Assembly (NCBI GenBank): GCA_965248535.1
Contig: CBDFJR010000002.1
Coordinates: 768,001-832,000 of the forward strand
Length of the DNA stretch: 64,000 nucleotides
Origin: Phormidesmis sp.
GTDB taxonomy: Bacteria; Cyanobacteriota; Cyanobacteriia; Leptolyngbyales; Leptolyngbyaceae
Reading direction: 5' to 3'
Positions 45,520 through 63,658 of the stretch are shown here, piece by piece. Each line of letters opens with the position of its first letter. The first letter of the stretch is position 1. The position numbers and the translations under genes were made by a program. The notes beneath the pieces were generated by a model. The model saw nothing but the letters and a program-made list of their open reading frames with translations, had not been told where the DNA came from and searched no databases.

Positions 45520-47214
45520 TTAGACATTCGATTTTTTAGATGGTTTTGCGATCGTTCTAGCCAGGGTGATAGCGCTGTGAAAGGCTTCGGTTGAGGGCTG
45601 AGAGCAGGCGAGAATCTCTGAATTTGTGGCCGCGATCGTCTCGATCGTCGAAAAGTGATCGGCATCGGTTAGCTGCAAATCTTGTCGCAGTTGCCGACAA
45701 AATTCAAAACTGCCAGAGGCACTCATGGTTTGCTGTCGCAGCAAGTCGAGCACAACTCCCGTATAGGTTTGCAGCCGCAATTGTTGAGAGACTCCCTGCA
45801 AAACTTTGACCAGCGTATAGATTTCATCGGGGGTGAGATCATCGAGCGATCGTCCTTCTAAAAGCGCTGGCTCGATCGCCAGCTTTTGCAACTGTTTGCG
45901 GAGGCTAGTGGTCATATTTTCGCGCTCATATTGAGAGCGAGTGCGGCGCATTGTGCGATAGAGCCACAGCGAACCAACCAGAACAATGAGAGCATTAAAC
46001 GCAAACAGGGGATAGTCGGGCAAACGGTTGAGCGAAGGACGAGCACCATAGGAAAAGAACGTCCAAAAAGAGGTGACCGTAAACAGCGTAAACACAATAT
46101 GCTGTGCCTGCTCTTGAGAAATAGCGCGACCTTTTCTAACAATCACTTTGCGACACAGTTTTTCTGCAATCAGCCCCAGCGTGAAAGTGATTGCGATTAA
46201 GACTGCAAACGTGATGAACACTGCAAACGCTTTTGGAATCGGAATGCTGTGCTGATAAAGATAAAACCCAGTGTCGAATGAGTTGGCAACCTGATCGTGT
46301 TCATGAGTCCATGCGCCTGTGAAGTAATAATCCCAGTTGCCCGCATAGAGGAAATAGTATAGATAAAACGCAATCACCATCCCCAAATAGCCATATTGAA
46401 CAAGCCGACGACCGGGTTTATTCAACTCTGTCCAATAAGTCTTTTCGGCATCAATATCAATGCAGGCTGTTTTGCATCCCACGCAGGCACTTTGTTCTCT
46501 GCCCGTTTGGGAGTCAGTGGTGCGACACATCGATTGAGTCACGGCTGCTTTAGGCTTGAGATAATTTTGACTGCCTAGGAGCGATCGTGGCCCCGTGTAA
46601 ACCATCTGCACAGGTGCCATCGGGCAAAAATATTGACACCAGCTTTTGCCCGCATACAAATAGCCCACCAGCATGGCGCAGAGAATCGTCGCGATCAGAA
46701 AGATGCCCAGGGCAAAACGATCGGAGTTGACGTAGAGAATTCGCAGCCCTAACCCCAGCACAAATAGCCCAAACTGAACATAGAGATGGTTGCGCCCTAG
46801 CCAGGAATTTTCCCCGATCGTCACGACCTCCTTTCGCACCTCACCTGTGACCCGATCCACCACTTTTTTTCGTCGCTGAATGCCTAGCGCCCGCGGGATC
46901 TGTGACAAAAAAGAGAGCGGACAAATTCGCCGCCAAAATTCATGGCCAAGCACCAACAGCACAAAAATTGCAGTCGGCACGATCATGGCCCACCAGATCA
47001 GAGCACTCATTGAAAAGGGTGCCTGCGCCAGACACGTCTCTCGAACCTTGACACACTGACTGAGATTGATCCGAAATGGACTGCTGAGATTGTTAGGCTG
47101 AGTCCACGCGATCGTAATAGGGTCATAAAAAAGTGACGCAATTAACACCAGCCAGCCAATGGTTAGCAACCAGCGGACACGGTGCATGGTCTTCTCAGAA
47201 ACTTGTTGCAGCAT
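45520..47214 (-). CDS. Multi-TM 4Fe-4S binding membrane protein (NapH/CcoG-like CxxxCP motif)
   Basis: WRRICPL, WCQYFCPM and SACVGCKTAC motifs, about 8 TM helices. Confidence 0.8.
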   Translation of the reverse strand: MLQQVSEKTMHRVRWLLTIGWLVLIASLFYDPITIAWTQPNNLSSPFRINLSQCVKVRETCLAQAPFSMSALIWWAMIVPTAIFVLLVLGHEFWRRICPLSFLSQIPRALGIQRRKKVVDRVTGEVRKEVVTIGENSWLGRNHLYVQFGLFVLGLGLRILYVNSDRFALGIFLIATILCAMLVGYLYAGKSWCQYFCPMAPVQMVYTGPRSLLGSQNYLKPKAAVTQSMCRTTDSQTGREQSACVGCKTACIDIDAEKTYWTELNKPGRRLVQYGYLGMVIAFYLYYFLYAGNWDYYFTGAWTHEHDQVANSFDTGFYLYQHSIPIPKAFAVFITFAVLIAITFTLGLIAEKLCRKVIVRKGRAISQEQAQHIVFTLFTVTSFWTFFSYGARPSLNRLPDYPLFAFNALIVLVGSLWLYRTMRRTRSQYERENMTTSLRKQLQKLAIEPALLEGRSLDDLTPDEIYTLVKVLQGVSQQLRLQTYTGVVLDLLRQQTMSASGSFEFCRQLRQDLQLTDADHFSTIETIAATNSEILACSQPSTEAFHSAITLARTIAKPSKKSNV

Positions 47215-47333: not shown

Positions 47334-49298
47334 TTAATGAATCGCTTCATGATTGATTTGCCAAAAACTAACCCGTTGATTTGCATTCCAAGTCACTAAA
47401 TAGTCATGATCGGGACTGAATGCAACATTAGTCGGATGCTCTAATGTTCCTGTCTCTCGCATCGCTAAACTTCCCGATTGAGGAATCCAAGTGCGAACGC
47501 TGCCGTTACCGTGAACGGTCATAATATTGCGATTGCATTTAGAAATGAGAATAGGATTGGCAGAAGCTTCGGGCAAAATCTGAACTAAGACTTCGCGGTT
47601 GAGATCCCACATCAGTCCTCGGTCTTTGCCAAAGCTAATCAGCGTGTGATCATTCACCAGTTGTAAGCCCACGATCGTATCGGTATGCCCCGAAAACGTT
47701 CGGTGAATCTGCCCGGTGCGAAGATCCCAGATTTGAAGCTGGCGATTAGCACAAGGTGCAGCATCACAAGACCCGCGACTGGCTGTGATCAGAGTGTCAG
47801 AAGTCGCGCCATAGGTGAGAGCGGTCACGTCTGCTTGAGAAAAGTTTAAAGTTTGCAGCAGGGTGCCCGTGTTTAAATTCCATTGGCGCAGGGTTCTATC
47901 TTTACTACTACTGACCAATGTTTGTAGATCCGGACTAATTGCGATCGCTGTTACAGACTTTTGATGTCCTCTAAACGTTTGCAGCAATTTTCCTGACGTT
48001 GCATCCCAAAGCTGAAGCGTCCCGTCTTCGCGACCACTGACCAAAACCTTGCTGTTTCGGCTCACTGCTAACGCTGTCACAGGTGCGTTATATCCCGCCA
48101 GTGTCTTGATGCGGATGCCACTGGGCAATGACCACAGCCGCAAAACATGATCGGCTCCGGCGGTGACCATGACTCGATTATCAGGGGCAATCAGCACCCG
48201 CTCGACCCCCGACTTAATCGACATTTCCCGCAGCATGGTTAAATGCCCATCAGACGGAGGAAGAAACTTCTGCTCTAGTTGAGTGAATGCAGATTTAGCC
48301 TGCTGACCATAATCTAGAAACCATCCGCCCACTGCCCCTTTAGAAGCCTGCGAAGCCACCGTTCCGATCAATAACAGCGTGCTGGCAGGCAAAACCAACT
48401 GTTGCACCCATTGATGTTTGCGACGAACCCCTTTTTGAAAACTCTGGGCTGCGGGCAATGTCTGAAGGTCGGTCAAAACCTCTACGGCCTCTTGGTAGCG
48501 ATCGCCGACTCGACTTCGCACCATGCGATTAAGAATCACTAACAGATCGGGAGGAACAGAAGACGACTGTAGATAACGCTGCCAATCTAGCTCCCCAGAG
48601 ATCAAATCTTGCTTAAACTGCCGCGGATCAACCCCCGTCAGCAGATGAATCACCACAATGCCCAACCCATAGAGGTCGCTGCTGATCTGAGCCATTCCCA
48701 GGCGTTGTTCATCGGGCATATAGCCCGGAGTGCCAATTTCAAGGGGCAGCAAGTCAGTGCCAGGTTGCAGACTAGCCTCGGTTTCTGGCAGGCGATCGGC
48801 TGCGCCAAAGTCAATCAAAACCACCTTGCCGTCTCGACGACGACGAATTAAATTGCTAGGTGTAATATCGCGATGGATCACCCGATGCGAATGAATATAG
48901 TTCAAAACAGGCAGCATTTCTAGCAGCAATGCGATCGCCGCCTTAGCAGAAAAGCGCTTTCCGTGAGTTAACCATTGGCTCAAATTTTCACCCTCAATAT
49001 ACTCTTGCACCAGATAGGTTGAATCCGGTTCTTGTTCTTGAACGTAAGCAAAGAGTGTCGGAATTTGCTTGTGATGTTGCCCAAACTGCTCTAACAGATG
49101 AGCCTCTGTCTCAAACAAGCGATGCGCTGTCTCTAGCGAAATCGTGCTGTGTGCGGGCAGTTTAAGACACTTGACAACGCACAGCGGATGTTGAGGAAGA
49201 TATTTGTCGCGAGCCAGATAGGTTTCGCTAAACCCTCCCGCTCCTAGCTTCTCTAAAATCAGGTAGCGTCCAGTTAATAGTTGCCCAATCATGCTCAT
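47334..49298 (-). CDS. Ser/Thr protein kinase with C-terminal WD40 repeats
   Basis: LGAGGFS, VVK, HRDITPSN, DFG, GTPGYM, then a hydrophobic stretch and GH...WD repeats. Confidence 0.92.
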   Translation of the reverse strand: MSMIGQLLTGRYLILEKLGAGGFSETYLARDKYLPQHPLCVVKCLKLPAHSTISLETAHRLFETEAHLLEQFGQHHKQIPTLFAYVQEQEPDSTYLVQEYIEGENLSQWLTHGKRFSAKAAIALLLEMLPVLNYIHSHRVIHRDITPSNLIRRRRDGKVVLIDFGAADRLPETEASLQPGTDLLPLEIGTPGYMPDEQRLGMAQISSDLYGLGIVVIHLLTGVDPRQFKQDLISGELDWQRYLQSSSVPPDLLVILNRMVRSRVGDRYQEAVEVLTDLQTLPAAQSFQKGVRRKHQWVQQLVLPASTLLLIGTVASQASKGAVGGWFLDYGQQAKSAFTQLEQKFLPPSDGHLTMLREMSIKSGVERVLIAPDNRVMVTAGADHVLRLWSLPSGIRIKTLAGYNAPVTALAVSRNSKVLVSGREDGTLQLWDATSGKLLQTFRGHQKSVTAIAISPDLQTLVSSSKDRTLRQWNLNTGTLLQTLNFSQADVTALTYGATSDTLITASRGSCDAAPCANRQLQIWDLRTGQIHRTFSGHTDTIVGLQLVNDHTLISFGKDRGLMWDLNREVLVQILPEASANPILISKCNRNIMTVHGNGSVRTWIPQSGSLAMRETGTLEHPTNVAFSPDHDYLVTWNANQRVSFWQINHEAIH

Positions 49299-49621
49299 TA
49301 TCCTTTGTGCGCGGACGTGCTCAAAGGGCTGGTGTCCGCGAAAACCATTAAAAAGCTCGTTGAGATTGCCTAGAAAGACTCAGGAGATTTCCCGCTGAAA
49401 ATTGATCGAAATGCACCTTCCCCAAGTCTGGGAATTCTCAGTTAACGTCCTTTAGTGAATGCTGTGAAGACTTAAGCCAAAGCGGTAGATAAACCTCAGC
49501 CTAACTCCAGTTCATGAATGAATGAGATGTAACTTTGGCTAGATGCTCGTGTAGATTATAACGATTAGCGTCGCTGTTGACCACCCACTCTGCCAAAAAT
49601 CAGCAAAAAGAGAAGGTAAAT

Positions 49622-49657
49622 TAATTAGAACTAGGTCTGATCCCCCTGTTCTAATTA
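49622..49657. promoter_or_regulatory. Paired inverted motif 1: TAATTAGAAC-N16-GTTCTAATTA
   Basis: Read directly. A minus-strand TGGTCA-N17-TATAAT promoter at 49583-49555 points to the kinase gene. Confidence 0.65.
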
Positions 49658-50254
49658 GTCTAATATGGGGCGATCGGGCTGACTGATCGAGATCAATCGC
49701 CTTAACGTTTTTCAAAATTGGGGAAGTTAGGGGCAAAAAGCTTGATACCTGCAATAGAGATCGTTCGGTGCAGCAATGCTTAGAGAGAGCATTGAAGGTG
49801 CAGCCATAGCAGAATAACTGGCTGGTGCAGATATTTTGTGCCAATTTACCAACAAGCCCATCCCAGTTCGCCCCTGCGACCCTCCTCGATCGTAAAAGAC
49901 TGTGACACTTCAAAAACAAGCACAGGCACGGATTTTAATTTGTAGAGAATCAATGAGTCTAGGATGCAGTAATCAGGATCGTTGGCAATGAATTCAGTTG
50001 AGCAAATGCTGACAAAACGATTTAACCTTTTGTTAGGGTAGACAGGTTTGCCGAAGAACATGGGTGCAGCTACTAGAGAGTTTGTTCGTCCAGATCAGGC
50101 TCACTCCATTCAAGCAAGTAGAGATCGAGTCCATTGATTCTAGGTTTCAATCGAAGCTTTTAGAAAGGCTGGCTCAGATCACTGCCAAAGCTTAGAGTCG
50201 GTGCAAATCTACTCTGAGACGCGCTTCACCCGAAACACAGGCATATAGTCAAAG

Positions 50255-51808
50255 ATGATTTCTACTTTTTGGAATATTCCTGGAATTCAATCTTGCAAGT
50301 CATTAGAGTTCTTAGAGCGATCGCTGACTCCGACAAGCGTGTATGACCAACAAGGACACATGCTTTATGCCAGCCAGAGCTTTTTAGAATTGCTGTTGAC
50401 TCCTGCGCCAACTCGCTTCTTAGATTGTTTTCCATCGACATCCATCGCGTTAATAGAATTGACCAAGGTTTGGGAGCAAGCTCTGCAAGGCGAGACTCCC
50501 CGATTTCTCTCTAAAACCAGAGACGCAGCAGAAACGCTCGAATGTTCCCTTCAGTTTGATCCAGAAGCCAACTTGATGTGGGTCAATGCTAAAAAAATTG
50601 ATGCCGCCGAACGAATTCGCAATCTCACAGAGGCTTATGAACAGGCGATTGCCCGATCTGCTCACGCCAACCTGGCAACAGTTTTGATCAATCCTCAGGG
50701 CGGCATCATTCAGTGCAATCAAAATCTGCACAAGCTTTTAGGAACTAGCGATCGCGATCTCCTCAATCTTGAACAGTTTGTACATCCCGAAGATCGGTTT
50801 ATTGATCAGCCGTTAAAGCAAAATTTGCTCGACGGCAATCTTCATGCCTACACGATCGAAAAGCGGTTTATTTCTAGAAACAACGAGGTTCTGTGGCTGA
50901 ATGTCAATGTCTCCTCGATCGCCATTTCTGCCTGCATTGAAGGACATCAGCGTTATTATGCCGTGCTGTTAGAAGACATTACAGAAAGTAAAAAGATCTA
51001 TAGCACGTTAGTAAGAACCGAAGAAAAGTGGAAAACACTTTTTCTCAATAGCCCTTATTTGTTTATTCAAACTAGCCCCAGCGGCCAAATGATCTATGTG
51101 AGTCCTGCGGTAGAAGACTTGCTGGGCTATCAGCCCGAAGAGTTGCTCGGACGACAGATCAAAGAACTCATTCACCCTAGCAATTTAAACGAGGTAGATC
51201 TGGCTCTCCAGCTATGGAGCAGCAATATTCAAACCCACCAATCCGGCATTGAATGCTGGTGGAGAGCCAAGTCTAACCGATGGGTGTCCCTGTCAATTCA
51301 AGGACAACGGTTTCCTTCGGCGCTAGAAATTGATGGCGTGATCATCAGTGGGCACAATATCACCGATCGTAAGTGTTTAGAAGTAGAACTGAGGGCAAAC
51401 GAAGAGAAGTTTAGATCTCTGGTGCTCAATAGTTTGGGCGTTGTGTTTCGCTGTGATGCAAGCTACATGATGGAGTTTGCTAGCGACGGAATTCAAGACA
51501 TGACCGGGTATCCGGCTTCTGTTTTTGTGAACAATCAGGTGCGATCGTATCTCAGCATTGTTCACCCAGATGACATTATCGTTCTTAAAGATTCACTGAT
51601 TCAAGCGGTTTTAGACCGTCATCGCGGCTCGATCAATTATCGAATTATCGATGCCCAGGGTCAGATTCGCTGGGTCACCGAACGTAAGCAAGGCGTATTT
51701 GACCAGAACGGCAACTTGTTATGGCTTGATGGCGTGCTGCTAGAAGTCAGCGATCGCAAGCCCCTAGAGGCAGAGTTGCGTCGCCGAGAAGCGATCGAGG
51801 GCAATTGA
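50255..51808 (+). CDS. Multi-PAS/PAC sensor protein with no output domain
   Basis: Repeated HPED/HPSN/HPDD, DITE/NITDRK PAC ends and EEKW/EEKF linkers. It terminates directly after the last PAC. Confidence 0.82.
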   Translation: MISTFWNIPGIQSCKSLEFLERSLTPTSVYDQQGHMLYASQSFLELLLTPAPTRFLDCFPSTSIALIELTKVWEQALQGETPRFLSKTRDAAETLECSLQFDPEANLMWVNAKKIDAAERIRNLTEAYEQAIARSAHANLATVLINPQGGIIQCNQNLHKLLGTSDRDLLNLEQFVHPEDRFIDQPLKQNLLDGNLHAYTIEKRFISRNNEVLWLNVNVSSIAISACIEGHQRYYAVLLEDITESKKIYSTLVRTEEKWKTLFLNSPYLFIQTSPSGQMIYVSPAVEDLLGYQPEELLGRQIKELIHPSNLNEVDLALQLWSSNIQTHQSGIECWWRAKSNRWVSLSIQGQRFPSALEIDGVIISGHNITDRKCLEVELRANEEKFRSLVLNSLGVVFRCDASYMMEFASDGIQDMTGYPASVFVNNQVRSYLSIVHPDDIIVLKDSLIQAVLDRHRGSINYRIIDAQGQIRWVTERKQGVFDQNGNLLWLDGVLLEVSDRKPLEAELRRREAIEGN

Positions 51809-51995
51809 ATCGGATCGAAAGGTTGATTCTTAATAAATCTCCCGGCTTCTTCGTCTAATCTTTGCATTTAGACTTTCTAGATTAAGAGAGCTTTAGGATA
51901 GAATAAGTTCACCGAGTTGACCAACTTAGGTCTAGCGAGTTAGTCTAACAAAATCGCTCCGTGGTGTGTAGGTTCCACAATCTTTTTGCCCTAAT

Positions 51996-53357
51996 ATGAG
52001 TCGTGAAATTTCCCCAGTGGGCGTTGACGAGCGGCTAATTCAAGCAGCGATCAAATCAGACCTTGAGGCGGTGACTGAAGGAGGGTTTCAGAGTCAGCTT
52101 GGGCCGCAAGAGACAACGCCTGAAGACGAGCTTGAGCGTCAGGCTGACTTACTCGATCAGTCCATTCAGCTTCCTGCTAAGGCAAAGGTGGCGTTGATTC
52201 GCAGGCTGATGTCTCACCTTGAAGCTGACAACATTCAAACCATTGTCGAATTTGGGTTAAGGGAGATCGGCGATCGTCATCGTCGCGGGGTAGCGGCCTC
52301 TGCCCTCGTCGAGCACAACACTCGACTGCTGCTCAAAAAAGACTACAGTTATCAAACTCGTGGTCTTGATGAACCCACTCAATATTTTGTCTATCTAAGG
52401 CGGCGCAAACCCAAATTAGACCGATATATTGGCACGCTGTTTCATGTGCCTCAAGGCTGTGTGCTTTCCTACTTTCTAGATGCTGAAGAACGGCTGATCT
52501 TCAACCCACCGCACAATGTTTTTCAACTACGAGACAGCAAAAATCCTGACATTGTTCAAGTGGTGCGGTTGATTTGCTTGGAGCCTCCCCCGCCAGACTA
52601 CACCTTTGCCAAGCAGCAAAATGACCTGCCCAACATTCAGCTACACCTAGAATATCTCGATCTCCAAACTCACCAACCCATTGCAAAGCTGACCTACCCG
52701 TTTCCGATGTGTATGCACGAGGGAGGCAAGCTCGATCGCTATCGCTGGGAAGTAACTACCGTCACCTCTTCGCCTGATCTGCCCATTGCCCGTCAACACT
52801 TTCCTCAAACCTCTGTGGTCGAGCCGTTGCCCTCAGCAGGTGTCGTCTCAGCAGCGCCCAAGTTTGACCCCAATCTCGCGCCCCTCGATCGCTCTAAGCC
52901 AGAGACTGCTCAACCCCTGCGCCGCGTGTTAGAGCTACAGCCAAAGCCCCTGACGTTTTATCTGAGCGATCGCGGTGACGCAGATGCAATTTTAAAGCGA
53001 ATGCGGTTGTGGGTAGCCTGGAGCGAGAAAGCCATGCCGCAATCAAAATGGGAGATTGTTCAAGATGCAGGCAGTTATACCCTGATGAATGCTCGGTTTA
53101 AACGACGAATTTTGCGATTCTCGCCTGACCTAAGCGCTGTCATCTTAGAGCATTCCCTGCCAGTTTTGATGAAATGGTTTCACGATTTGAGCTTGGCGGT
53201 GTCTCAGTCTCAAAACCAGCGACAATACACTTCGGTGCAATTAAAGCTGGCTCACACGCTGTTTATAGAAATGAGCCTACCTCAAACTGATCCCTTCATT
53301 GCTCTCAACAAATTGTTTGGCGCAGAGTTTTCTAAAACGTCTCCGACCAACACCTAG
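51996..53357 (+). CDS. Hypothetical cytoplasmic protein
   Basis: 453-aa ORF with no recognised family, containing a basic YFVYLRRRKPKLDRYIG segment. Confidence 0.75.
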   Translation: MSREISPVGVDERLIQAAIKSDLEAVTEGGFQSQLGPQETTPEDELERQADLLDQSIQLPAKAKVALIRRLMSHLEADNIQTIVEFGLREIGDRHRRGVAASALVEHNTRLLLKKDYSYQTRGLDEPTQYFVYLRRRKPKLDRYIGTLFHVPQGCVLSYFLDAEERLIFNPPHNVFQLRDSKNPDIVQVVRLICLEPPPPDYTFAKQQNDLPNIQLHLEYLDLQTHQPIAKLTYPFPMCMHEGGKLDRYRWEVTTVTSSPDLPIARQHFPQTSVVEPLPSAGVVSAAPKFDPNLAPLDRSKPETAQPLRRVLELQPKPLTFYLSDRGDADAILKRMRLWVAWSEKAMPQSKWEIVQDAGSYTLMNARFKRRILRFSPDLSAVILEHSLPVLMKWFHDLSLAVSQSQNQRQYTSVQLKLAHTLFIEMSLPQTDPFIALNKLFGAEFSKTSPTNT

Positions 53358-53426
53358 CCCAAACCGTCTAACTCGCGGGCAACGGCAAGACCGCTAGCCA
53401 TCTGTTTAAAGCTGCAAAACTCGATC

Positions 53427-53467
53427 GGCTCCCAAAACCAGTTCTTAAGACTTGAAGGTTTGGGAGC
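53427..53467. terminator. Hairpin between convergent genes
   Basis: GCTCCCAAAACC ... GGTTTGGGAGC. Confidence 0.5.
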
Positions 53468-53521
53468 ACGATCGTTCTGCCTGTCACACTTGATTCAGGG
53501 TTGCTATGGCTGCAAAGTCTG

Positions 53522-54388
53522 CTACTTAAGCCCGATCTTCACCGTCTTTAGAGCCACAGAGGGCATTGGCGGCGCGTCTACGGCAGCAATTTGCAGCAAG
53601 GATGCGTCTGGCTCATAGCGTTGTATCATTGCTTGCTGCAACAACTCCTGCACCGGGAGACTATTGTAGAGAGGAGAACCCTCTAGTGACTTGATGGCAT
53701 CAATCACTCCCGGCCAATCTTCGGCAGATTGTGCGGCAACGGCCTGATTGAACAATTTAGCTTGTTGACTCCACCGCTGCTTGAGTTCTACGCTGCGATC
53801 GTGCCATTGGCTAGTGTCTGGAATGCTGTCTAACAGGGCGATCGCCGGAGCAATCTCACCTTGTTGAATGTGGTTGGTTGCTTGGCGCACTAGCTCTTGT
53901 GACCACTCTTCCTGAAGTTTTTGCACTAACTCATAGTGCTGACTATTTTTCGGAATTCCGGCGACGGTGGTGACGGCTACTGTCAACTGATCCCGGCTGG
54001 CAGCCGCCTGCGCTTGGTTTAACAAATCGGCGTATACCGCTTCCATTTTGCTGGGCAGCTTGTCAGATTGCCCATGGCTCTGCAACTGATCACTCCACTG
54101 ATGATTTAGAATTTTTTCGGGAGGTGCAGTCGTGAAGTATTGCACGGCTTTAGAACAATGCTTTTCTAAAGCGGCACTAGTGGGGATCTGGGGACAGGAT
54201 TGGGGGTTAACCTCTGACACGGCTGCTTGTGAGCCATTGTTAATCAACAGTGCAGAGCAAACAATCATGCCACTGCTAGCCGCCATTCTTAAATCAGAAG
54301 TCTGAACATTGAAGGGCAAACGGCGGTTTTTTTTGAAGGAGGGAGCGATCGAAGGGTCTGTAAACGGCTCTAATAGCTGATGGCTCAT
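53522..54388 (-). CDS. Hypothetical protein with an N-terminal hydrophobic segment and helical repeats
   Basis: Repeated 'A...A...IP..S....' helical units resembling extracytoplasmic parts of cyanobacterial kinases. Confidence 0.6.
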   Translation of the reverse strand: MSHQLLEPFTDPSIAPSFKKNRRLPFNVQTSDLRMAASSGMIVCSALLINNGSQAAVSEVNPQSCPQIPTSAALEKHCSKAVQYFTTAPPEKILNHQWSDQLQSHGQSDKLPSKMEAVYADLLNQAQAAASRDQLTVAVTTVAGIPKNSQHYELVQKLQEEWSQELVRQATNHIQQGEIAPAIALLDSIPDTSQWHDRSVELKQRWSQQAKLFNQAVAAQSAEDWPGVIDAIKSLEGSPLYNSLPVQELLQQAMIQRYEPDASLLQIAAVDAPPMPSVALKTVKIGLK

Positions 54389-54587
54389 AATTAGGAAAAT
54401 TACACAATGAACGATCGTGATATGGCAACCTGTTTTGAGTCGTGATTGATTCGCTCACAAACCCAAGATTGGAGAAACAAAACACGGATTCCGCCAACCT
54501 TGGGCTTTGAGGCGGTCGCTCTGCACCTCATGATTGATTGAGAGGGGCTATAACCCCAAACCATCAGAGGACTGTCGAGACCGAAGA

Positions 54588-55406
54588 TTAGACCAGGGTA
54601 AAATCGGCTGCTGAAAACTTGGATAGATTGGCCAATCCAGTTTCGCCCCGTTGATTATCTAAATTAGCCAACACGCTCACATCTCCACCATTGCTCAGAT
54701 CTTGAGAGTAGGCCAAACGGGTCAACCCCAAGGTCGAGTTGAAGTAAACAAACGCGCCTTCGTGAGCGGTGATCTGATCATTGTTGGCGATCGCACGAGC
54801 CGCCGCCCCTGCTGCCGGAAAGGGATCGGTGAGCACAATTACGTTACTGTCTCCAGCAATCTGAGACGACTGTCCTTTTTGAAACTTGAGGGTGTCAAGG
54901 TTCAGATCAAACTTGTTGAATGCAAATTTATCTTCTCCGATCGTAAAGTCTGAAATCACATCAGGCTGGTTTAGAACATTGATGCCTGTTTTGCCAGCAG
55001 GTGCCGGAATGCCGTTGGCAAACACATCGCCCGTGTAGACAAACTGATCGGCTCCTGCGCCGCCCGTGAGTTGATCGACTCCATTGCCGCCAACCAGCAG
55101 ATCATTGCCCGCATCACCCATGATTAGATCGTTGCCATTGCCGCCTGAGAGCCGATCATTGCCAGTGCCCCCAAACAAGGCATCATTGCCGTTGTCGCCG
55201 GAGAGAAAATCGTTGCCATCATTGCCGAGCAGCAAATCGTTGCCTTCTTTACCTCTAGCAACGTTGTTGGTGGTGTTGCCAACAAACAGATCATTGGTTT
55301 GTGCGGTGCCGTTAAAAGATAAACCATCGGTGGCGCGATTGACGGTAGTGATGTCGTTTAAGAGCGCTAAGACTGTCTGTAGTCCAATTTGGGCGTTAGT
55401 AGTCAT
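54588..55406 (-). CDS. RTX / hemolysin-type Ca-binding secreted protein
   Basis: About 8 GxxGNDxLx nonapeptides, DVISDF motif, C-terminal FSAADF. No Sec signal peptide. Confidence 0.88.
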   Translation of the reverse strand: MTTNAQIGLQTVLALLNDITTVNRATDGLSFNGTAQTNDLFVGNTTNNVARGKEGNDLLLGNDGNDFLSGDNGNDALFGGTGNDRLSGGNGNDLIMGDAGNDLLVGGNGVDQLTGGAGADQFVYTGDVFANGIPAPAGKTGINVLNQPDVISDFTIGEDKFAFNKFDLNLDTLKFQKGQSSQIAGDSNVIVLTDPFPAAGAAARAIANNDQITAHEGAFVYFNSTLGLTRLAYSQDLSNGGDVSVLANLDNQRGETGLANLSKFSAADFTLV

Positions 55407-55898
55407 GGTGATTTCCTTAAGATTGATTGAACTCTAGAGCGGCTCAAGTCAGCTTATAAACTAGAAGCTGTGGCCACTTGGATTCGGTTGGTTGAAATGA
55501 TCTGAGGGGCGATCGCACTGAGCAAAATCGGCTAACAGCACGAACCCAGCACCCTGCCTTTGCCACCCCTGATAAAGTCTGCCGTTGATCTCGCTTGAAT
55601 GAATCTTTAGGATGGACTGGTCAGACTCAACGAATTAGCTACCCACTCCATGAGTTTACTATGAAGCTTCACTCTATACCAAGGTTAAAGAACTAAATGG
55701 ATTTCTCCAACCTGGTAATCTCAGAACTTTCTAAAGACAGCCTAACTTTTTTATACCTGCCTAAGTTTGCGAGTCTAGAGTGATATCTAGAAAAAAATCG
55801 TCTCAATACTGGGACTATAACGTAATTTTAGCGATCGCATCTAGCGAATTCACTCAGTGTTTGGTGTTTTATTTTTAACCAAAAAGCCGTAATATTGC

Positions 55899-55936
55899 TA
55901 ATTAGAACCCACTGATTTGAGAAATTGTTCTAATTA
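55899..55936. promoter_or_regulatory. Paired inverted motif 2: TAATTAGAAC-N18-GTTCTAATTA
   Basis: Read directly. Confidence 0.65.
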
Positions 55937-56135
55937 AATAATTTATCAAATAGTATCCGGGTTGTTGCGGGTTAGCCTGTATAAATGACAGTCAGGATGT
56001 AGCTGACTGCTGGTTAATGCACACCAATATCCACCTAGAAATTTTCTGGTGACGAGTTTAGATCTCTGGGCACAAGTCCTTAACCCCTTGAACCCTTGAA
56101 GCCTGCGGAGTTAATAGAAAACCTACGGCGGTAGT

Positions 56136-56169
56136 TAATTAGAACTTAATTTATGGTTGGTTCTAATTA
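56136..56169. promoter_or_regulatory. Paired inverted motif 3: TAATTAGAAC-N14-GTTCTAATTA
   Basis: Read directly. It abuts TAGACA-N17-TAGCCT (56173-56201), a candidate promoter of the T1SS operon. Confidence 0.65.
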
Positions 56170-56343
56170 GTCTAGACAGGCGGTAGATAGTGTTGTAGCC
56201 TGTGAAACGATGAGGCATTGCCATGATCTAGATTGTTGACTAGTTCATAAAAACTATATGCGTGGTTTCTCAATCTGCTGATTCACCGCGACACACGTTA
56301 GCTGATCAAAAAGATTGTCTATTTGAACATTTGGAACACTTCC

Positions 56344-57135
56344 ATGAGTAGCTGCTTAAAGATTGGTAGTCGCCTGTTAGATGGTGACCAAATTATCTCT
56401 GCTTTAGTTCAATACAAGCTTCTAGAACCGCTAGTTGGGCATCTCTTGTTAGACGAAGTGGTTAAAGAAGTTCCTCTATTAAAACAGGAGGTTTTTCACA
56501 CTCTAGTAGGCGAGAGCGAGACCCCCATACCCGATGACTTTGAGGGTTTTTTAACTCAATGGTGTCAACAAAAGGAGATTGCCCTAGAGTATTTTAAGAC
56601 CGTGATGATGCGCGAGTGGCAACTGCAAAAATTTAAACAACTTCAGTTTGATGATCAAGTAGAGTCAGAGTTTCTTCGCATTAAGTCAGATCTCGATCGA
56701 GTGGAATATTCACTGATTCAGCTTGATGATGGGGCGTTGGCCCAAGAAGTCTATTTTCAGCTTCGAGACGATGGCGTAGAGTTTGCTCAACTTGCCCAAG
56801 CATACTCATTGGGGCGTGAGCGACACGCAGGCGGATTAGTCGGCCCAGTGGCATTTTCGACACTGCCGATCGACGTTGCGGCCTTATTTCATCACCAACA
56901 AACGGGAATAGTTTACGCTCCGGTGCCTGTCGGCGATCGATTTTGGGTAGTGCGACTAGAGCGAGTCATTGCTGCTCGGCTGACTGAGGTAACTCGATCG
57001 GCTGTGGTCGATCGTCTCTATACTCAATGGCTGCAAACGCAAGTTCAAAAAGTGATGGATACACCGGGAGCGATCGCGGTGCAGTCCAATACAACAGAGC
57101 AATCTTTAGAACTCCAACGTGTTCCCTCTGGGTAG
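56344..57135 (+). CDS. PpiC/parvulin-type peptidyl-prolyl isomerase associated with a T1SS
   Basis: VEYSLI...AQEVYFQL...FAQLAQAYS...GGLVGP. Confidence 0.85.
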   Translation: MSSCLKIGSRLLDGDQIISALVQYKLLEPLVGHLLLDEVVKEVPLLKQEVFHTLVGESETPIPDDFEGFLTQWCQQKEIALEYFKTVMMREWQLQKFKQLQFDDQVESEFLRIKSDLDRVEYSLIQLDDGALAQEVYFQLRDDGVEFAQLAQAYSLGRERHAGGLVGPVAFSTLPIDVAALFHHQQTGIVYAPVPVGDRFWVVRLERVIAARLTEVTRSAVVDRLYTQWLQTQVQKVMDTPGAIAVQSNTTEQSLELQRVPSG

Positions 57136-57192
57136 CCTTCAATTCCTTAGGAGATGAGATTAACAGAGTTTACAGCGTGAGGATTCGTATCA

Positions 57193-60175
57193 ATGATGCA
57201 AAGTGATGAACGAATGCAATCGTTTCTGACAGATTTTTTTACGGCATGGCTGTTTAAACCTTTGCCCGATCATTTGCGAGGCGCGATCGCGGCAAAACTG
57301 CGGTTGTGTTCTTTTCAGCCGGGGGCGGTGATTTATCCCCCAACCGAGTTGCCGTCAGATGTTCACTTTATTGTGCAGGGAAGCGTGCGGATTCTCGGCG
57401 CTGATTCTCAAAAAAATCCAACGCTGGGGGTGCTAGGGCCGGGCACTGTGATCGGGTGGGATAGCTTGATTCGTCGCGTTGGAGAGGGATCAGTGCGCGC
57501 TGCAATGACTCCTCAGGTCGCCGATCGAGAAGTGTTGACGCTGGCCCTTGCAGCCGATGAATTTGAATCACTGGCCTTAAACTATCTCATGCCTGTGTTG
57601 ATGCAGCAGGTAAGTTTATTAGAACTCTTTGATACTCTGTCTCGTGCGCTGTCGCATTTGCTCGATCCAACCTCTGATCTCGATTTGTCAGAAGTCGTGC
57701 AGTCGATCGATCGAGGACAGTTTGCCGTTGCTCAACATTGGGATGCAGCCATGCCAGAGGCGCGATCGCTGACGCTCTCCGACGATCGTATCTGGCTAGT
57801 CAGCGGAGGTGGAGGGTTGAACTTGCCGATCGGAACTCCGATCACCCACGTCAACCAATTGCAGCAAACTCGTCCGTCTCGATTTCCGGTGCGGTTGTTG
57901 GGACTCGATCGCGTCTGCCTAACCTCAACCCTTCAACAAACTCCGGCAATTCTCGCCCCGATCGAGCCTTCTGCTCCCATTTCTGCCCCTGATGATAAAG
58001 CCTATCCTGCCTGGAAGTCGCGTTCTCTAGAACCGATCGAGGACATTGTAGCGTGCTTTGGAATGGTCTGTGAGCGCCTACAGGTGCCCTATCGTCCCGA
58101 CTCTATGCGCCGCTCACTCAAACAGCAATCGCTCGATCGGTTTAAACCCGTCGATCTGTATATGCGGATTGCTCAAGCGATCGGGCTAAATGCTCAAGTG
58201 ATTAACTTCACGCCTACGGGCGGCGGCATCAATCGGCTGATCACTCCGGCGCTGATTCAGTTTGGGGATGTGTTTGCTGTGCTCTATAGCGTCACACCGA
58301 CCATGACCGTGTTGGGGTCACCCCGAACTGGATTGGTGCGCTTGACTCCCGATCGGTTAGCAGAACGCTTGACGATCGAGTCTCCTTCAGGCTCCGGGGC
58401 AGCGGCTTGTCGAGCGATCGTGCTCGATCGACTTGGTGTCTACGCCGACCAAGCGGTTTGGGTTCCAGCGGTTTGTGCCTATGGTGATCAAACAGCGCGA
58501 TATTTTGGTGCAGGTTCTGCTGGCTTCGATCGTCATTCAACTGTTGAGTTTGGGCAATCCCTTATTAGTGCAGCAGGTAGTCGATAACGTGATTATCGGG
58601 GCCAATGTAGGCGCGATGTCAACGTTTGGAACGTTGATGATTGTGTTTGCACTTCTAGAAGGGGTGTTGACTATTCTGCGGACGCAAATGTTGACCAGCA
58701 CCACCAACCGCATGGATCTGCATCTAGGCGTTGAAATTGTGCGACATCTGCTGCATTTGCCCCTAAAGTTTTTTGAACAGCGTCCAGTCGGAGAGCTAGC
58801 TTCGCGGTTATTAGAATTAGAAAACATTCGTCAATTTATGACAGAGACGGCAATCACTACAGTGATGGATGTCGTGTTTTCGATATTTTATATTGGCGTA
58901 ATGCTTCTTTATAGCACTCGTTTAACGCTGTGCGTTCTGGCGACAGTTCCTATTGTAATTATTTCGACCCTGCTGATGTCTAAAATTCAGCAAAAACTGA
59001 TTCGGGTTAAAGCCGATCAGGGGGCAAAAGTGCAGTCCTATATGGTCGAAGTTTTAAGCGGCATTGCGTCGGTTAAATCTCAGCACATGGAGTCTTTAGT
59101 CGAAGCAACCTGGCGCGATCGCTATGTGCAATATCTGACCAGTGGCTTCACAACCTCAAACATCAACACAGTCTTTTATTCCTATAGTAATTTTCTCAAC
59201 ACAGTCAGCAGTTTGTTGGTGCTGTGGGTCGGTGCCGAACTGGTGCTGAAGGGTGAATTAACTCTGGGTGGACTGATCGCCTTTCGCATTTTGACGGGGT
59301 ATGTGACGGGCCCACTTTTGCGCTTGGCGCGGCTCTGGCAGCGATTTCAAGAAACCTCACTGTCGATGGAACTGCTCGCCGACATTGTAGACTCGCCTGC
59401 CGAAGAAGAGTTATCTCAAGAACAAAAACTGCAAATTCCCCCGATCGTGGGGCGAGTTCAATATCACGAGGTTTGTTTTGGGTTTAACCCAGGGCAACTG
59501 CAATTATCAGAGATTCAGTTAGACATTGCGCCCGGCACCTTTGTCGGCATCGTGGGTCAGAGCGGCTCTGGAAAAAGCACGTTAATGAAACTGTTGCCGC
59601 GTTTATATTTACCTCAGAGCGGCAGCATTACCATTGATGATTATGATGTTTGCAAAGTTGATTTGCACTCTCTGCGATCGCAGGTGGGTGTGGTCTCTCA
59701 AGATGCCGTCTTATTTCAAGGCACGATTCGAGACAACATTGCCCTGTTTGAAAATTTGCCCGATGAGGTGGTGATGGAAGCGGCACGGGTCGCTGATGCT
59801 CACGAGTTTATCATGCAGTTGCCCGATGGCTATGCGACGCAAATTGGCGAACGCGGCGCGGCTCTCTCAGGCGGTCAGCGACAGCGAATCGCGATCGCTC
59901 GCGTCGTGCTTCGCAACCCCCGACTGCTGATTTTTGATGAGGCCACAAGCGCCTTGGATTATGAGACTGAGCGCCGAGTTTGCACCAATTTGATGCAGCG
60001 ATTTCAGGGTCGCACCTGCTTTTTTATCACCCATCGACTGAATACGATCGCCCGCTCAGATTGGATTCTCTTTATGCAGTCTGGCATCATTGCCGAGCAA
60101 GGAACCCATCAAGATTTGATGGCACGTCGTCAACTTTATTACTGCCTCTATGCTCAACAATCACGGCAGCCCTAA
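57193..60175 (+). pseudogene. Type I secretion ABC transporter (cNMP-binding + C39-like + ABC TM + NBD), split by a +1 frameshift at about 58432 (pseudogene or sequencing error)
   Basis: cNMP and C39-like domains in ORF1. ORF2 has TPTKRFG..., GQSGSGKST, LSGGQRQR, FDEATSALD. The junction reads CGA-CTT-GGT-G. Confidence 0.85.
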
Positions 60176-60228
60176 GCAGCCAAAGGATTGTTTACAGAAA
60201 TCACCTATTGCTTGTCTGGAGAAAATCT

Positions 60229-61701
60229 ATGCGTCGTCCTCGATTGTTTGCACCTTTAGGAGCACTGAAAACCCGTTACCGAACCATGCAAGATCAGGTC
60301 GAACAAGATCTGGAAACTAAAGCAACAGGGCTACCCGCCGCTGGCAACTGGACAAAGCGACTGACGCAAGTGATTCTGCTAGGAGTCACGGTTGGGGTTG
60401 GCTGGTCAGTGTTGGCGCGAGTAGATGTGGTCGTCAACGCCAGTGGTAAATTAGAGCCACAGTCCCAGTCTCAAGTGGTGCAGGCGAGAGCAGGCGGAGT
60501 CGTGACGGCGGTGCTAGTGCGCGAAGGTGAATCAGTGAAACAAGGGCAACTGTTGATGCAGTTCGATCGGACATCACTACTCAATCGACTGCAAGAGTTG
60601 TTGCTTCAACGTCAGAGACTGGTGAAAGAAATAGCGGTGCTGCGAGTTGCCCAACAGGGAAAATCATTGCCAACGGCGGGAAAGAGCAATCTTGAGATCT
60701 CACCCGAACTGACGAGCCAGGTGCAGACGCGCTTGCTGTTGGTGGCTCAACTCACCGGAAACCCCAGCAGTCTTGCGCCCGATCAGCTTCGACGATATAA
60801 CCTCTTTCAACAGCAATTGCGCGATCGTCAATCGCTCAGTCAGCTACAAAAGTCCACGTTGCTAACCAAAATAGCTGACTCTGATGCCCAGATTACTCAA
60901 ACTCAGTTTCAGCTACAGCGAGAGCAAGAACTGCTGGCAAATTTGCGCCCATTAGTCCAGCAAGGTGCGATTCCTCGTGTCACCTTGTTGCAGCGTGAAG
61001 TCGGAGTTGGCGATCTGCAAAAACAACTGATCCAGAATCGGCTGCAAAAAGAGCAGGTAGAAATCGGGCAACTGCAAACCAGAGTTGAAGACAGCAAACT
61101 GCTAAATGAAACCCAACAGGATTTGCAAAAACAGTTGGCAGAATTAGATGCCAAATTTGACTCCATTATTAAAGACAATCAGCGCCAGATGATTGAAGTA
61201 GACTCGCAGTTGAATCAAAGTCGGCTTGATCTCAAAAATCAGGGGTTGCGCGCTCCCACCGATGGAGTGGTGTTTGAACTGGGGTCAAAACTGCCGGGTG
61301 CCGTCACTCAGCCCGGTCAGACGCTGCTGCAAGTGGTGCCTAATGAGTCGTTGACAGCACGGGTGCAGGTAGCCAATGCTGATATCGCCAATGTTCGGGT
61401 GGGGATGCCTGTTGATGTTCGCATTGATGCTTATCCCTTCACTGAGTTTGGCTCTGTCAAAGGGGTAATCTCAAAAGTAGGCAGCGAAGCGGTTCCGGTG
61501 AGTCAGCAGTCCCCGCGATCGACCGTTTTCCCCATCGAAGTGCGGCTCGATCGCCAGTTTCTTGAGCGGCGATCGCAGCGATTTTCCCTCACACCGGGCA
61601 TGACCATCACGACTTTGATCAAAGTTCGTCAACGTGCGCCTATTAGTTATGTCACCGAAGAAATCACCAAGGCCTTTGATGGCATTAAATCTGTTCGCTA
61701 G
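60229..61701 (+). CDS. HlyD-family membrane fusion protein
   Basis: One TM, VREGESVKQGQLL, coiled coil, RAPTDGVV, DAYPFTEFG, LTPGM. GGAG RBS upstream. Confidence 0.92.
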   Translation: MRRPRLFAPLGALKTRYRTMQDQVEQDLETKATGLPAAGNWTKRLTQVILLGVTVGVGWSVLARVDVVVNASGKLEPQSQSQVVQARAGGVVTAVLVREGESVKQGQLLMQFDRTSLLNRLQELLLQRQRLVKEIAVLRVAQQGKSLPTAGKSNLEISPELTSQVQTRLLLVAQLTGNPSSLAPDQLRRYNLFQQQLRDRQSLSQLQKSTLLTKIADSDAQITQTQFQLQREQELLANLRPLVQQGAIPRVTLLQREVGVGDLQKQLIQNRLQKEQVEIGQLQTRVEDSKLLNETQQDLQKQLAELDAKFDSIIKDNQRQMIEVDSQLNQSRLDLKNQGLRAPTDGVVFELGSKLPGAVTQPGQTLLQVVPNESLTARVQVANADIANVRVGMPVDVRIDAYPFTEFGSVKGVISKVGSEAVPVSQQSPRSTVFPIEVRLDRQFLERRSQRFSLTPGMTITTLIKVRQRAPISYVTEEITKAFDGIKSVR

Positions 61702-61707
61702 CCGAAT

Positions 61708-61740
61708 TAATTGGAACTAGTAATAATTTGGTTCTAATTA
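61708..61740. promoter_or_regulatory. Paired inverted motif 4: TAATTGGAAC-N13-GTTCTAATTA
   Basis: Read directly. It is followed by TTGCCA-N16-TATAGT (61764-61791). Confidence 0.65.
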
Positions 61741-62266
61741 ATGCAATTTAATTCAAAAAGGGGTTGCCATTCGCTCGAAGTTTGTTATAGTAGTTGCAGG
61801 GCGACGATGGGACTCAGAAGAACTCAAATCTCCACTCTGCCCAAGCGTTTTAACTCTTTTCACTCACCTGCATCTACCGCAGAGATCTTAGCGACATGAT
61901 CGCCCTTAGAACCTTCTAAGCATAGACTCCACAGATTTCTGGGTGATTTTCTTGGCTTGTGCAAGATTGAGACTATTGTTTCTTAAGTCCATGATCACCG
62001 CTTCAGGGTGAAATCAGAGCATAGATTAATTCTGAAACCTTAGCAGGAATCAGATGTGCATAATCACTACTGTTCAATCAGCCTCTAATTTACGAAGTAA
62101 ACCTTTTGTAAATTATGGCAACACCTGCTATCAGAGCTAATCTATCTATCGTTGTTAAAACTGATTTCTACCTGCCAAAAATTGACTGATAAAACTCTAC
62201 ATCAGCCTTGATGTCAGCAGTTTAATCTTTGCAGACTGTCCTTTTTCTTAACCGTTAGGAGCCACT

Positions 62267-63658
62267 ATGGAAGCCTTAGACAACAAAGCTCTGTTAGAAA
62301 AGCAAAACTCGACTGGAATTGCAGATCCGACTCTTGGCACTGCAAACTCTAACCTTTCGACTAGCCAATCAAAAGGCTCTCTGGTGCAAGATGCAACGTT
62401 AGAACGATCGCTCAACAACTCACTCGCAGCCGACGAGCGCGAAACTCTTCCGGCTAACCTAGATGACCACGATCACGCGCCTGTTGTTGGCACTTTTCAG
62501 TTTCACGTCGAGCTAAGTCAAGTTGCCTCTGCTAGAGGGCTTGATGTGAGCAAACTGGTGCGTGAAGATTCCTTCAAAGATAACCTTGGCGCTAAGGGCG
62601 ACTACTTGAACCCCAGAGGTGGCAACAACGTCGTGATTGGGTCGGGTGACAGTGACATTATTCGCGGCACCGGGCGCGGCTTTAACACGATCACCACGGG
62701 CACGGGCAAAGACACGATCATTCTAGGGCCCGAAACGACCAACCGAGTGCTTGACTTTGATGCTGCCAGCGATCGCTTTGTGCTATCGGGACTGAACGCC
62801 AAAAACATCATCATTGCTCAAGGCAAAAACCCCGGTAAGGGAGGACTAGACCAACCTCTTGATTCGGTCAACAATACCCTGATCATTGACAAAAAAACAG
62901 AGCACATTCTTGCATCGTTGCCGTTTGTGAAAGCATCTGATCTGTCTGAAAAGAACTTTGCTCTCAACAGCCGTGAGGCAAACAGCAGCTTGGGAGACCT
63001 CAAAGAGTTAGGCTTTAAAACTCAGCGAGGAGATGGCAAACTCACAGGCACCCAGGGGCACGATCGCTTAATCGGGGGCAGCGGTGATGACTTCCTCTAC
63101 GTGGGCAATGACGGCTTTAAGACGGGGATTGCTAAGGGCACCGGCCCGACCGAGTTTCCTTTTCCTAATGACAGCCCTGGAGTCACAGAACTCAAGACTG
63201 AGCTAAAAGACGGAGTTCTCCGCATTAATGGCACCTACAAAAACTTTGATGCTGCGCCTCTGTTTAGCCAAGGCGAAACCACCATTGATCCTAACGCTAA
63301 GATCCTCAACGGCTCAGATCCTGTGTCGTTGGTAAACAACTTCTTGAAAGTTCCCAAAGATGTTGAGGGCAACCTGCTGTCTGGCACTCACTTGCACTTC
63401 AGCCCCTCTGAAGATAGTCGCGGCAACTTTGCTGATGCAACAGTTGTTCGCTTCTTAACTAACACTCCAACTGATGCCAAGTCGGGCACGATTTCGGGTC
63501 AGTTTAACCTAACTCCAACTGAGCAAGCTGCTTTCTTGGCAGGCGATCTCTATGCCAACGTTCACACCAACATTGATCTCGATAAGGATGGTAGAGCCGG
63601 ATTCCCCACCGGAGAAAACCGCGTCAACTTCAACAAAAATGTTGTGCAGTTTGTCTAA
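62267..63658 (+). CDS. Secreted RTX-repeat protein with a C-terminal CHRD-like domain
   Basis: GSGDSD/GTGKD/GGSGDD repeats, THLH...LxxxQxxAFLAGDLYANVHT...FPTGENR CHRD signature. AGGAG RBS. Confidence 0.8.
   Translation: MEALDNKALLEKQNSTGIADPTLGTANSNLSTSQSKGSLVQDATLERSLNNSLAADERETLPANLDDHDHAPVVGTFQFHVELSQVASARGLDVSKLVREDSFKDNLGAKGDYLNPRGGNNVVIGSGDSDIIRGTGRGFNTITTGTGKDTIILGPETTNRVLDFDAASDRFVLSGLNAKNIIIAQGKNPGKGGLDQPLDSVNNTLIIDKKTEHILASLPFVKASDLSEKNFALNSREANSSLGDLKELGFKTQRGDGKLTGTQGHDRLIGGSGDDFLYVGNDGFKTGIAKGTGPTEFPFPNDSPGVTELKTELKDGVLRINGTYKNFDAAPLFSQGETTIDPNAKILNGSDPVSLVNNFLKVPKDVEGNLLSGTHLHFSPSEDSRGNFADATVVRFLTNTPTDAKSGTISGQFNLTPTEQAAFLAGDLYANVHTNIDLDKDGRAGFPTGENRVNFNKNVVQFV

Follow-up and report, generated by a model that had tools for sequence, protein, structure and literature searches.

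Inverted 10-mer pairs as putative operators of a secretion-cluster regulon in Phormidesmis sp. (Leptolyngbyaceae)

What function, if any, might four near-identical inverted repeats have in the intergenic regions of a single gene cluster? The question is raised by a 64,000-nt stretch of the Phormidesmis sp. genome (contig CBDFJR010000002.1 of assembly GCA_965248535.1, positions 768,001 to 832,000, here G000:C2:768001-832000 and referred to in its entirety as the window); the genome itself (G000) is 5.03 Mb, with 50% G+C. Each repeat is a pair of inverted 10-mers with the architecture TAATTAGAAC-N13-18-GTTCTAATTA, and the cluster encodes a type I secretion system (T1SS), RTX- and CHRD-type proteins, and a signalling module with Ser/Thr kinase, FHA, and PAS domains. 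A regulon had been proposed from inspection of the window alone (the original prediction). Comparison with related genomes makes it fairly probable that the four pairs serve as operators for a small regulon limited to the cluster, read by a trans-acting DNA-binding protein that is most likely an activator. The putative operators, all four intergenic, are:

49622..49657, no strand: putative operator O1, exact TAATTAGAAC-N16-GTTCTAATTA, in the spacer that separates the kinase operon (-) from the PAS gene (+)
55899..55936, no strand: putative operator O2, exact pair, N18, closest to the RTX gene
56136..56169, no strand: putative operator O3, exact pair, N14, closest to the PpiC-like/T1SS operon
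61708..61740, no strand: putative operator O4, TAATTgGAAC-N13-GTTCTAATTA, left arm with one mismatch, beginning 7 nt past the HlyD stop codon

These positions and spacers (three exact pairs, and one mismatch at 61708-61740) are as originally described, as is the identical extension of two of the sites: O1 and O3 both continue GTTCTAATTAGTCTA. A search of the window likewise agreed that no pair occurs in its first 49 kb. The intergenic placement also held, since a 126-amino-acid open reading frame (ORF) with a TTG start that spans O1 (49539-49919, minus strand) has neither a Pfam match nor a tblastn match in the orthologous loci; a look for small conserved ORFs in the 956-nt kinase/PAS spacer turned up none that was convincing. 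With up to one mismatch allowed, TAATTAGAAC occurs 11 times in the 64-kb window, against 2.36 expected, and none of 100 shuffles reached 11; there are three exact pairs, against 0.00 expected. The contiguous 14-bp palindrome GTTCTAATTAGAAC, of which each half-site could form one half, is absent from the window.

The pair is also confined to the cluster at the scale of the whole 5.03-Mb genome. There are 13 exact half-sites, seven of them in these 12 kb; the next-best pairs have at least three mismatches; and a search with the degenerate consensus given below, with spacers of 11-20 allowed, returned only these four pairs, 4/4 of them in the cluster. A dispersed repeat is thereby ruled out: 13 exact half-sites and four pairs in 5.03 Mb, and no more than four pairs per genome across 90 genomes, do not fit a dispersed intergenic repeat of the miniature inverted-repeat transposable element (MITE) or repetitive extragenic palindrome (REP) kind. 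A recombination site or inverton was rejected as well, the spacers of partner sites having no sequence in common. One other arrangement, TAACTAGAAC-N10-GTTCTAGTAA at G000:C2:7318-7347 and C5:990890-990919, was set aside as part of a duplicated region with a spacing outside the operator range; the duplicated copies, over at least the 3 kb compared, are 98.5% identical and in opposite orientation.

Conservation in relatives follows the same pattern. The exact pair was found in 14 of 90 genomes of the family (6/27 genera), against one genome for a reversed-pattern control, and all 15 of the foreign loci are orthologous intergenic regions of the cluster: three between the kinase and PAS genes, eight between the RTX and PpiC-like genes, two between the HlyD and CHRD genes, and two between CHRD paralogues. 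PpiC-like orthologues lacking an exact pair have variants with one to four mismatches upstream. The broader consensus TAAYTRGAAC-N13-18-GTTCYARTTA occurs in 33/90 family genomes, at one to four copies each (control, one genome). Twelve further consensus sites were checked, and 10 adjoin cluster orthologues, either a CHRD gene or a kinase/PAS pair. Sites orthologous to O1 are found at L004/L084, L006, L009, L171-L173, L179, and in genome G050 (L168). In the divergent RTX/PpiC-like region, 20/32 genomes have two operators, 85-240 bp apart in the cases measured. Between O2 and O3 in the window (~55975-56015), in addition, a conserved TATAAA precedes the inverted repeat CAGTCAG...CTGACTG, an arrangement also present in L012, L065, L007, and L023.

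A scan of all species, at one genome per species, yielded 109 stretches with the pair. Cluster orthologues are present at 21 of these loci, in Leptolyngbya-, Phormidesmis-, Elainella-, and Coleofasciculus-like records among others, with spacers of 13-18 except for L061 (N7); the remaining stretches are unrelated to the cluster. Named carriers of the cluster are Phormidesmis priestleyi ULC007 and Leptolyngbya sp. NIES-2104 and NIES-3755. In 19 Flavobacterium loci (e.g., L025, L027, L031, L040, and L043) the 10-mers make up the outer portion of longer hairpins, and covariation is seen in the inner stem. With a T-run and an A-run on their flanks, these hairpins resemble bidirectional terminator-like elements and have no relation to the cyanobacterial sites. 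In SAR202/Chloroflexota (L022, L042, L049, L053, L070, L081, L088, L091, L097, and L098) an N22 pair amounts to GAAC-N4-GTTC boxes, two in tandem, that are flanked by TTGACT and TAAAAT and closely precede a ribosome-binding site; this looks like a LexA-type operator.

Occurrence of the same exact pair in such unrelated genomes, for which a rough estimate gives ~14 chance matches in 596 Gb, is what could be said for a chance repeat, or for the remnant of a mobile element or a dispersed repeat with no regulatory role. Against this there are only four copies, in one cluster; orthologous positions are occupied in 33/90 genomes; and shuffle and reversed-pattern controls are near zero. This explanation is effectively refuted, its remaining probability being negligible. 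The pair is not spread over the genome, and several genera retain it upstream of orthologues despite divergence of the spacers; both the genome-wide scan and the footprinting proposed with the original prediction thus came out in its favor, and the motif is well supported as one specific to a regulon in this cluster.

The anatomy of the sites was examined in a set of 74 distinct examples, with spacers of 11-20 allowed in the search. The half-site consensus is TAAYTRGAAC. The GAAC is all but invariant, and appreciable variation is limited to positions 1, 4, and 6, with C at position 4 in 14% of arms and G at position 6 in 20%. All spacers are 13-18 (25, 13, 16, 11, 3, and 6 examples of each length, in increasing order), and while the arms are near-invariant the spacers are unrelated in sequence. 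A separate observation is that in N13 operators upstream of PpiC-like genes (L131-L144) the spacer itself is conserved in several genera, as AGTTnnnnAAAYTG; such conservation could mark a third element for recognition or reflect constraint on the shape of the DNA.

The genes around the operators were assigned from Pfam and NCBIfam matches:

43791..45347, minus strand: FHA, ferredoxin-reductase-like, and 2Fe-2S protein (module A)
45520..47214, minus strand: 564-amino-acid polytopic membrane protein of no family (module A)
47334..49298, minus strand: Ser/Thr kinase with WD40 propeller (module A)
50255..51808, plus strand: PAS-only protein (module A)
51996..53357, plus strand: P0001, an orphan 453-amino-acid protein, the best in-cluster candidate for the operator reader
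53522..54388, minus strand: 288-amino-acid protein of no family, with an N-terminal hydrophobic segment
54588..55406, minus strand: RTX-repeat protein
56323..57135, plus strand: PpiC-like protein (weak rotamase/TIGR04500 match)
57193..60175, plus strand: T1SS ABC transporter of HlyB type with an N-terminal cyclic-nucleotide (cNMP)-binding domain, in two frames with a switch near 58433
59980..61701, plus strand: HlyD-type T1SS adaptor
62267..63658, plus strand: RTX and CHRD-domain protein

The gene set is syntenic in three of the related genomes (G040, G072, and G028). In a fourth, G050, the T1SS module and the kinase/PAS/P0001 module are separated by 200 kb. The ABC transporter is a single ORF of 982-1030 amino acids in all four; its two overlapping frames in the window represent either a frameshift or an assembly indel. 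A CLC chloride-channel gene elsewhere in the window (36977-39605) is also split into two overlapping ORFs, with a Voltage_CLC match in each, and this second frame break within the same 64 kb hints at indel errors in the assembly. Just beyond the end of the window, the CHRD gene is followed by a gene for a DUF2808 protein (L128:786-1349), which is kept there in G040, G028, and G072.

If the pairs are operators, they should be considered in relation to promoters. Those proposed here are:

49555..49583, minus strand: promoter-like TGGTCA-17-TATAAT, kinase operon; scan score 10/12; 38 nt from O1
55872..55901, minus strand: inferred RTX promoter, weak; -10-like TAAAAA(T) 21 nt from O2, whose arm end overlaps the -35 position
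56173..56201, plus strand: inferred promoter of the PpiC-like/T1SS operon, TAGACA-17-TAGCCT; scan score 8/12, under threshold; begins 3 nt past O3
61764..61791, plus strand: promoter-like TTGCCA-16-TATAGT, RTX/CHRD gene; scan score 10/12; 23 nt past O4

Of the three sigma70-like promoters in the original prediction, the scan therefore recovered those at 49583-49555 (minus) and 61764-61791 (plus) and missed the one at 56173-56201, whose position is nonetheless conserved in orthologues; the RTX promoter was not detected by the consensus scan either. It is on conserved position that the argument for these promoters rests, since matches in the scan are equalled by those in shuffles. Before the kinase operon, GTCAA...TATAAT/TATACT can be seen by eye 39-40 nt from the operator in four independent orthologues. 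On the PpiC-like side, again by eye, a -10-like hexamer begins 23-28 nt from the operator in 23/32 rows, mostly with TGn before it, which puts the -35 position in the first 1-9 nt past the arm. The CHRD promoter-like element, GGTTGCCATT...GTTATAGTAG, lies 22-23 nt from the operator in four genomes (the window, L014, L017, and L051) and 33-36 nt away in two others (L015 and L016). The RTX side is weaker, with an A/T-rich -10-like hexamer visible 18-24 nt from the distal operator in 8/13 rows. Distances are thus conserved by class: the operator abuts the -35 position for the RTX and PpiC-like/T1SS promoters, and lies ~22-38 nt upstream of it for CHRD and the kinase. Between the CHRD promoter-like element and the start codon there is a leader of ~470 nt (61792-62266), with long blocks conserved in L014 and L051 and partly in L017, and no Rfam match.

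Placement upstream of or abutting weak -35 elements is the reason for preferring activation. A poor -35 characterizes the PpiC-like promoter, and many relatives add to it a TGn-extended -10; the combination is typical of activator-dependent promoters. The same operator could also be bound by a repressor or dual regulator that occludes the -35/UP region at the RTX and PpiC-like promoters, perhaps by looping between O2 and O3. Both of these abut or overlap -35 positions, where a bound protein could block RNA polymerase, and the paired operators found in most divergent RTX/PpiC-like regions would permit looping. But O1 and O4 sit 22-38 nt upstream of their -35 elements, a distance from which simple repressors rarely act, and the poor -35 hexamers beside O3 suggest a need for help rather than for blocking; a repressor or dual regulator is rather unlikely.

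A further possibility is that each pair is itself a promoter, or rather two face to face: a bidirectional promoter for a sigma factor of the extracytoplasmic function (ECF) type, with GAAC as -35 and TCTAA as -10 on either strand. GAAC...TCTAA does resemble ECF-type elements, and 3/4 sites are in divergent regions. The distance from GAAC to TCTAA would however span 15-20 nt, a 6-nt range, where ECF promoters tolerate about +/-1 nt; there are separate conserved sigma-70-like elements downstream; and no sigma factor is conserved in the cluster. This seems highly improbable.

At the RNA level, the pairs might be hairpins, or in DNA cruciforms or single-stranded structures, recognized as structure rather than as duplex sequence, for example by an RNA-binding protein for which they would signal processing, stability, or attenuation. 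Each site can indeed fold, with predicted energies of -7.3 to -11.1 kcal/mol as RNA and -3.4 to -7.1 kcal/mol as DNA; a variable loop length is natural for a hairpin; and the start of O4 so soon after the HlyD stop codon would suit one. Changes in the arms also show some symmetry. In an alignment of 86 sites (860 cells), changes on both sides were found in 11 cells against 5.7 +/- 1.8 in shuffles, with 4/500 shuffles reaching 11, and L168, L147, L141, and L023 have fully compensated variants. This excess could reflect pairing, a lineage-specific shift in the preference of the reader, or relatedness of the sequences.

Other observations weigh against a hairpin. The stem sequence is fixed to the base, without free covariation, in four site classes and nine genera. 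Of the changes in the 74-site set, 64 affect a single arm and nine are identical on both. Among the 860 cells 92.4% are paired, against 91.5% in shuffles, with row orientation arbitrary and G-U indistinguishable from A-C; the 65 unpaired cells are mostly at the mid-stem positions 4 and 6. The spacers, unlike the inner stems of the Flavobacterium hairpins, do not appear selected for additional pairing: real ones gain only 0.4 kcal/mol over shuffled ones (t about -2), with 2.36 inner pairs against 2.19. The sites are also at fixed distances upstream of the conserved promoter-like elements. There is no terminator-like call at any of the four, and an intrinsic terminator was rejected because the stems have only three G/C in 10 positions and no T-run follows; Rfam gave no match at the sites at E<=1, with one sub-threshold miRNA match elsewhere. 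With the arms conserved base for base, the sites upstream of promoters, and neither a terminator nor an Rfam signal, recognition as duplex DNA is favored. A role as hairpins is improbable, and of the three ideas originally offered for the variable spacer (two independently bound dimers, DNA looping, or RNA hairpins) it is the least supported.

Returning to the operators as sites for an activator, we infer that a sequence-specific protein acting in trans, probably two-fold symmetric and with flexibly tethered heads, would read two TAAYTRGAAC half-sites 13-18 bp apart in the duplex. It would most likely activate, either abutting the -35 (RTX, PpiC-like/T1SS) or from ~22-38 bp upstream (CHRD, kinase), and the regulon would link the T1SS and its RTX/CHRD cargo with the Ser/Thr-kinase/FHA/PAS signalling module next to it. 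Action in trans is supported by G050, where the two modules 200 kb apart each carry a site. Several observations weigh against this reading. A 6-bp spread in spacer length is unusual for a symmetric dimer. Promoter-like matches in the consensus scan are no commoner than in shuffles, so that the promoter calls amount to conservation read by eye, and helical phase is not shared by all the distances from operator to -35 (0-3, 22-23, 33-36, and 37-38 nt). Changes on both arms are in excess, as noted above. Two of the 12 further consensus sites are away from any cluster orthologue: one in G028 (L169:2973-3005) is 83 nt upstream of a major facilitator superfamily (MFS) sugar-transporter gene, and one in G025 (L174:2996-3033) is within a 473-amino-acid ORF with no Pfam match, near genes for a TPS-domain protein and a histidine kinase/OmpR-type pair. 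Finally, none of the conserved cluster genes has a known DNA-binding domain according to Pfam and NCBIfam.

As a kind of cis-element the pair is familiar; its geometry is unusual. One likeness is to operators of LytTR-type activators (AgrA, ComE, and PlnC, among others), which also have long repeats of 9-10 bp, separated by about two turns of the helix and placed just before or against the -35 of a few promoters, and serve dedicated regulons that are often related to secretion or peptides. Those repeats are mostly direct, with a fixed spacer of 12-13 bp, whereas the pairs here are inverted and 13-18 bp apart; neither Pfam searches of the cluster proteins nor fold matches to the beta domain of P0001 revealed a LytTR domain, a result that is compatible with a LytTR fold all the same. 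Regulators of the AraC type, with flexibly linked DNA-binding domains, similarly tolerate differences in half-site spacing and orientation and activate from positions overlapping or abutting the -35. Their half-sites are ~17 bp and read by a double helix-turn-helix (HTH), in contrast to 10 bp here, and no AraC/XylS domain was found in or beside the cluster. SinR operators (GTTCTYT) share a GTTCT-containing half-site, inverted or tandem arrangements with variable spacing, and an association with secreted or matrix functions; SinR, however, belongs to the XRE-type repressors and comes from Bacillus; the present half-site measures 10 bp and carries a TAATTA extension, and the conserved cluster genes include none of XRE type.

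Class II sites for CRP, FNR, and NtcA resemble the pairs in being inverted repeats beside a weak -35, with co-regulation at the cluster level in cyanobacteria. Theirs have short fixed spacers and cover 14-22 bp centered near -41.5, while here only the promoter-proximal arm sits there. Neither the NtcA consensus GTA-N8-TAC, whose absence had already been noted, nor that of CRP (TGTGA-N6-TCACA) is present within the four sites. The LexA/Cheo box, GAAC-N4-GTTC, has the GAAC and GTTC tetranucleotides in common with them, but differs in spacing (4, against 13-18), in lacking the conserved TAATTA extension, and in serving the SOS set instead of a secretion cluster. Literature searches on the motif strings, and on a cyanobacterial T1SS/RTX/CHRD/cNMP regulon, found no published match. 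Within the limits of these searches, the motif appears to be new, as does the combination of 10-bp half-sites at 13-18 bp spacing with no recognizable cognate factor.

What might read the operators? The conserved neighbors in four genomes are the cluster's own genes only, none with an HTH; a sigma factor and a LuxR-type gene near module A in G050 are not conserved elsewhere. The original prediction named the 51996-53357 protein, P0001, as a candidate, and its distribution does match that of the motif: each is found in 33/90 genomes, 32 of them in common. The match fails in two genomes, G030 (84% complete), whose only sites are more divergent ones, and G079 (74% complete). As P0001 belongs to the cluster, this co-occurrence is partly circular. 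A more informative contrast is provided by genomes with the T1SS module and no module A: G008, G010, G084, and G086 have a PpiC-like orthologue (50-54% identity) and no P0001, and a site was found upstream in 0/4 of them and nowhere else in these genomes; the upstream regions of paralogues had none either (0/8). The motif thus appears to track the kinase/PAS/P0001 module.

P0001 itself is from an orphan family (164 proteins in a first search; 17 representatives among 1.84 billion clusters in a profile search), and 10 distant profile matches have no Pfam domain. It has no Pfam or NCBIfam match of its own, and a sequence profile found nothing in the PDB at E<=10; protein-atlas matches to portal-like clusters, with scores below 0.9, were dismissed as leads of no weight. 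An AlphaFold2 (AF2) model, with a predicted local distance difference test score (pLDDT) of 72, comprises helices at the N terminus, a domain rich in beta structure, a disordered linker, and a basic C-terminal domain of pI 9.7, the domain pI values not being telling. Foldseek found no match to the full model at E<=0.001, and a VIA fold search gave best Z scores of 6.7 for the N-terminal helices and 5.5 for the C-terminal domain, below the meaningful level. For the beta domain alone (pLDDT 83) the best Z was 4.5, to propeller-blade fragments, with nothing from Foldseek at E<=0.001 and no LytTR protein listed.

A two-copy model of P0001 scored 0.50, against 0.00 for the best control, passing a mark that was reached by 20/30 proteins solved as pairs of one chain and by 1/23 solved as single chains. 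At least 40% of contacts are shared between runs, with a partner pLDDT of 66-68 and a predicted interface at residues 48-95. The modelling supports homodimerization, and tethered domains on a dimer would go well with half-sites that are inverted and variably spaced; this is a fit only. The candidacy of P0001 stands, then, as regards co-occurrence with the motif and modelling as a homodimer, and falls short in that no DNA-binding domain or fold was detected. It can be called the best in-cluster candidate for the reader with low confidence, and a gene elsewhere in the genome may just as well encode the reader. A bolder idea, which we consider doubtful, is that P0001 founds a new class of transcription activators with no known DNA-binding fold, placing the T1SS and its RTX/CHRD cargo under the Ser/Thr-kinase/FHA/PAS module. 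It would then be a homodimer joined by its N-terminal helices, with tethered globular domains each reading one 10-bp half-site, and such tethering would explain the tolerance for spacers of 13-18 bp.

Little is known of the control of protein secretion in filamentous non-heterocystous cyanobacteria such as the Leptolyngbya- and Phormidesmis-like lineages. The element described here defines a compact and directly testable regulon, comprising four promoters, a T1SS, two RTX-type proteins, and a eukaryote-like kinase/FHA/PAS module, and conserved in about a third of the genomes in the family. It is also instructive as regards spacing tolerance in symmetric regulators, given its long half-sites and their variable distance. 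If the regulator is an ordinary factor encoded elsewhere, this would be a solid but routine new regulon motif; in either case the operator provides a handle for finding the regulator, which may be a protein of new fold.

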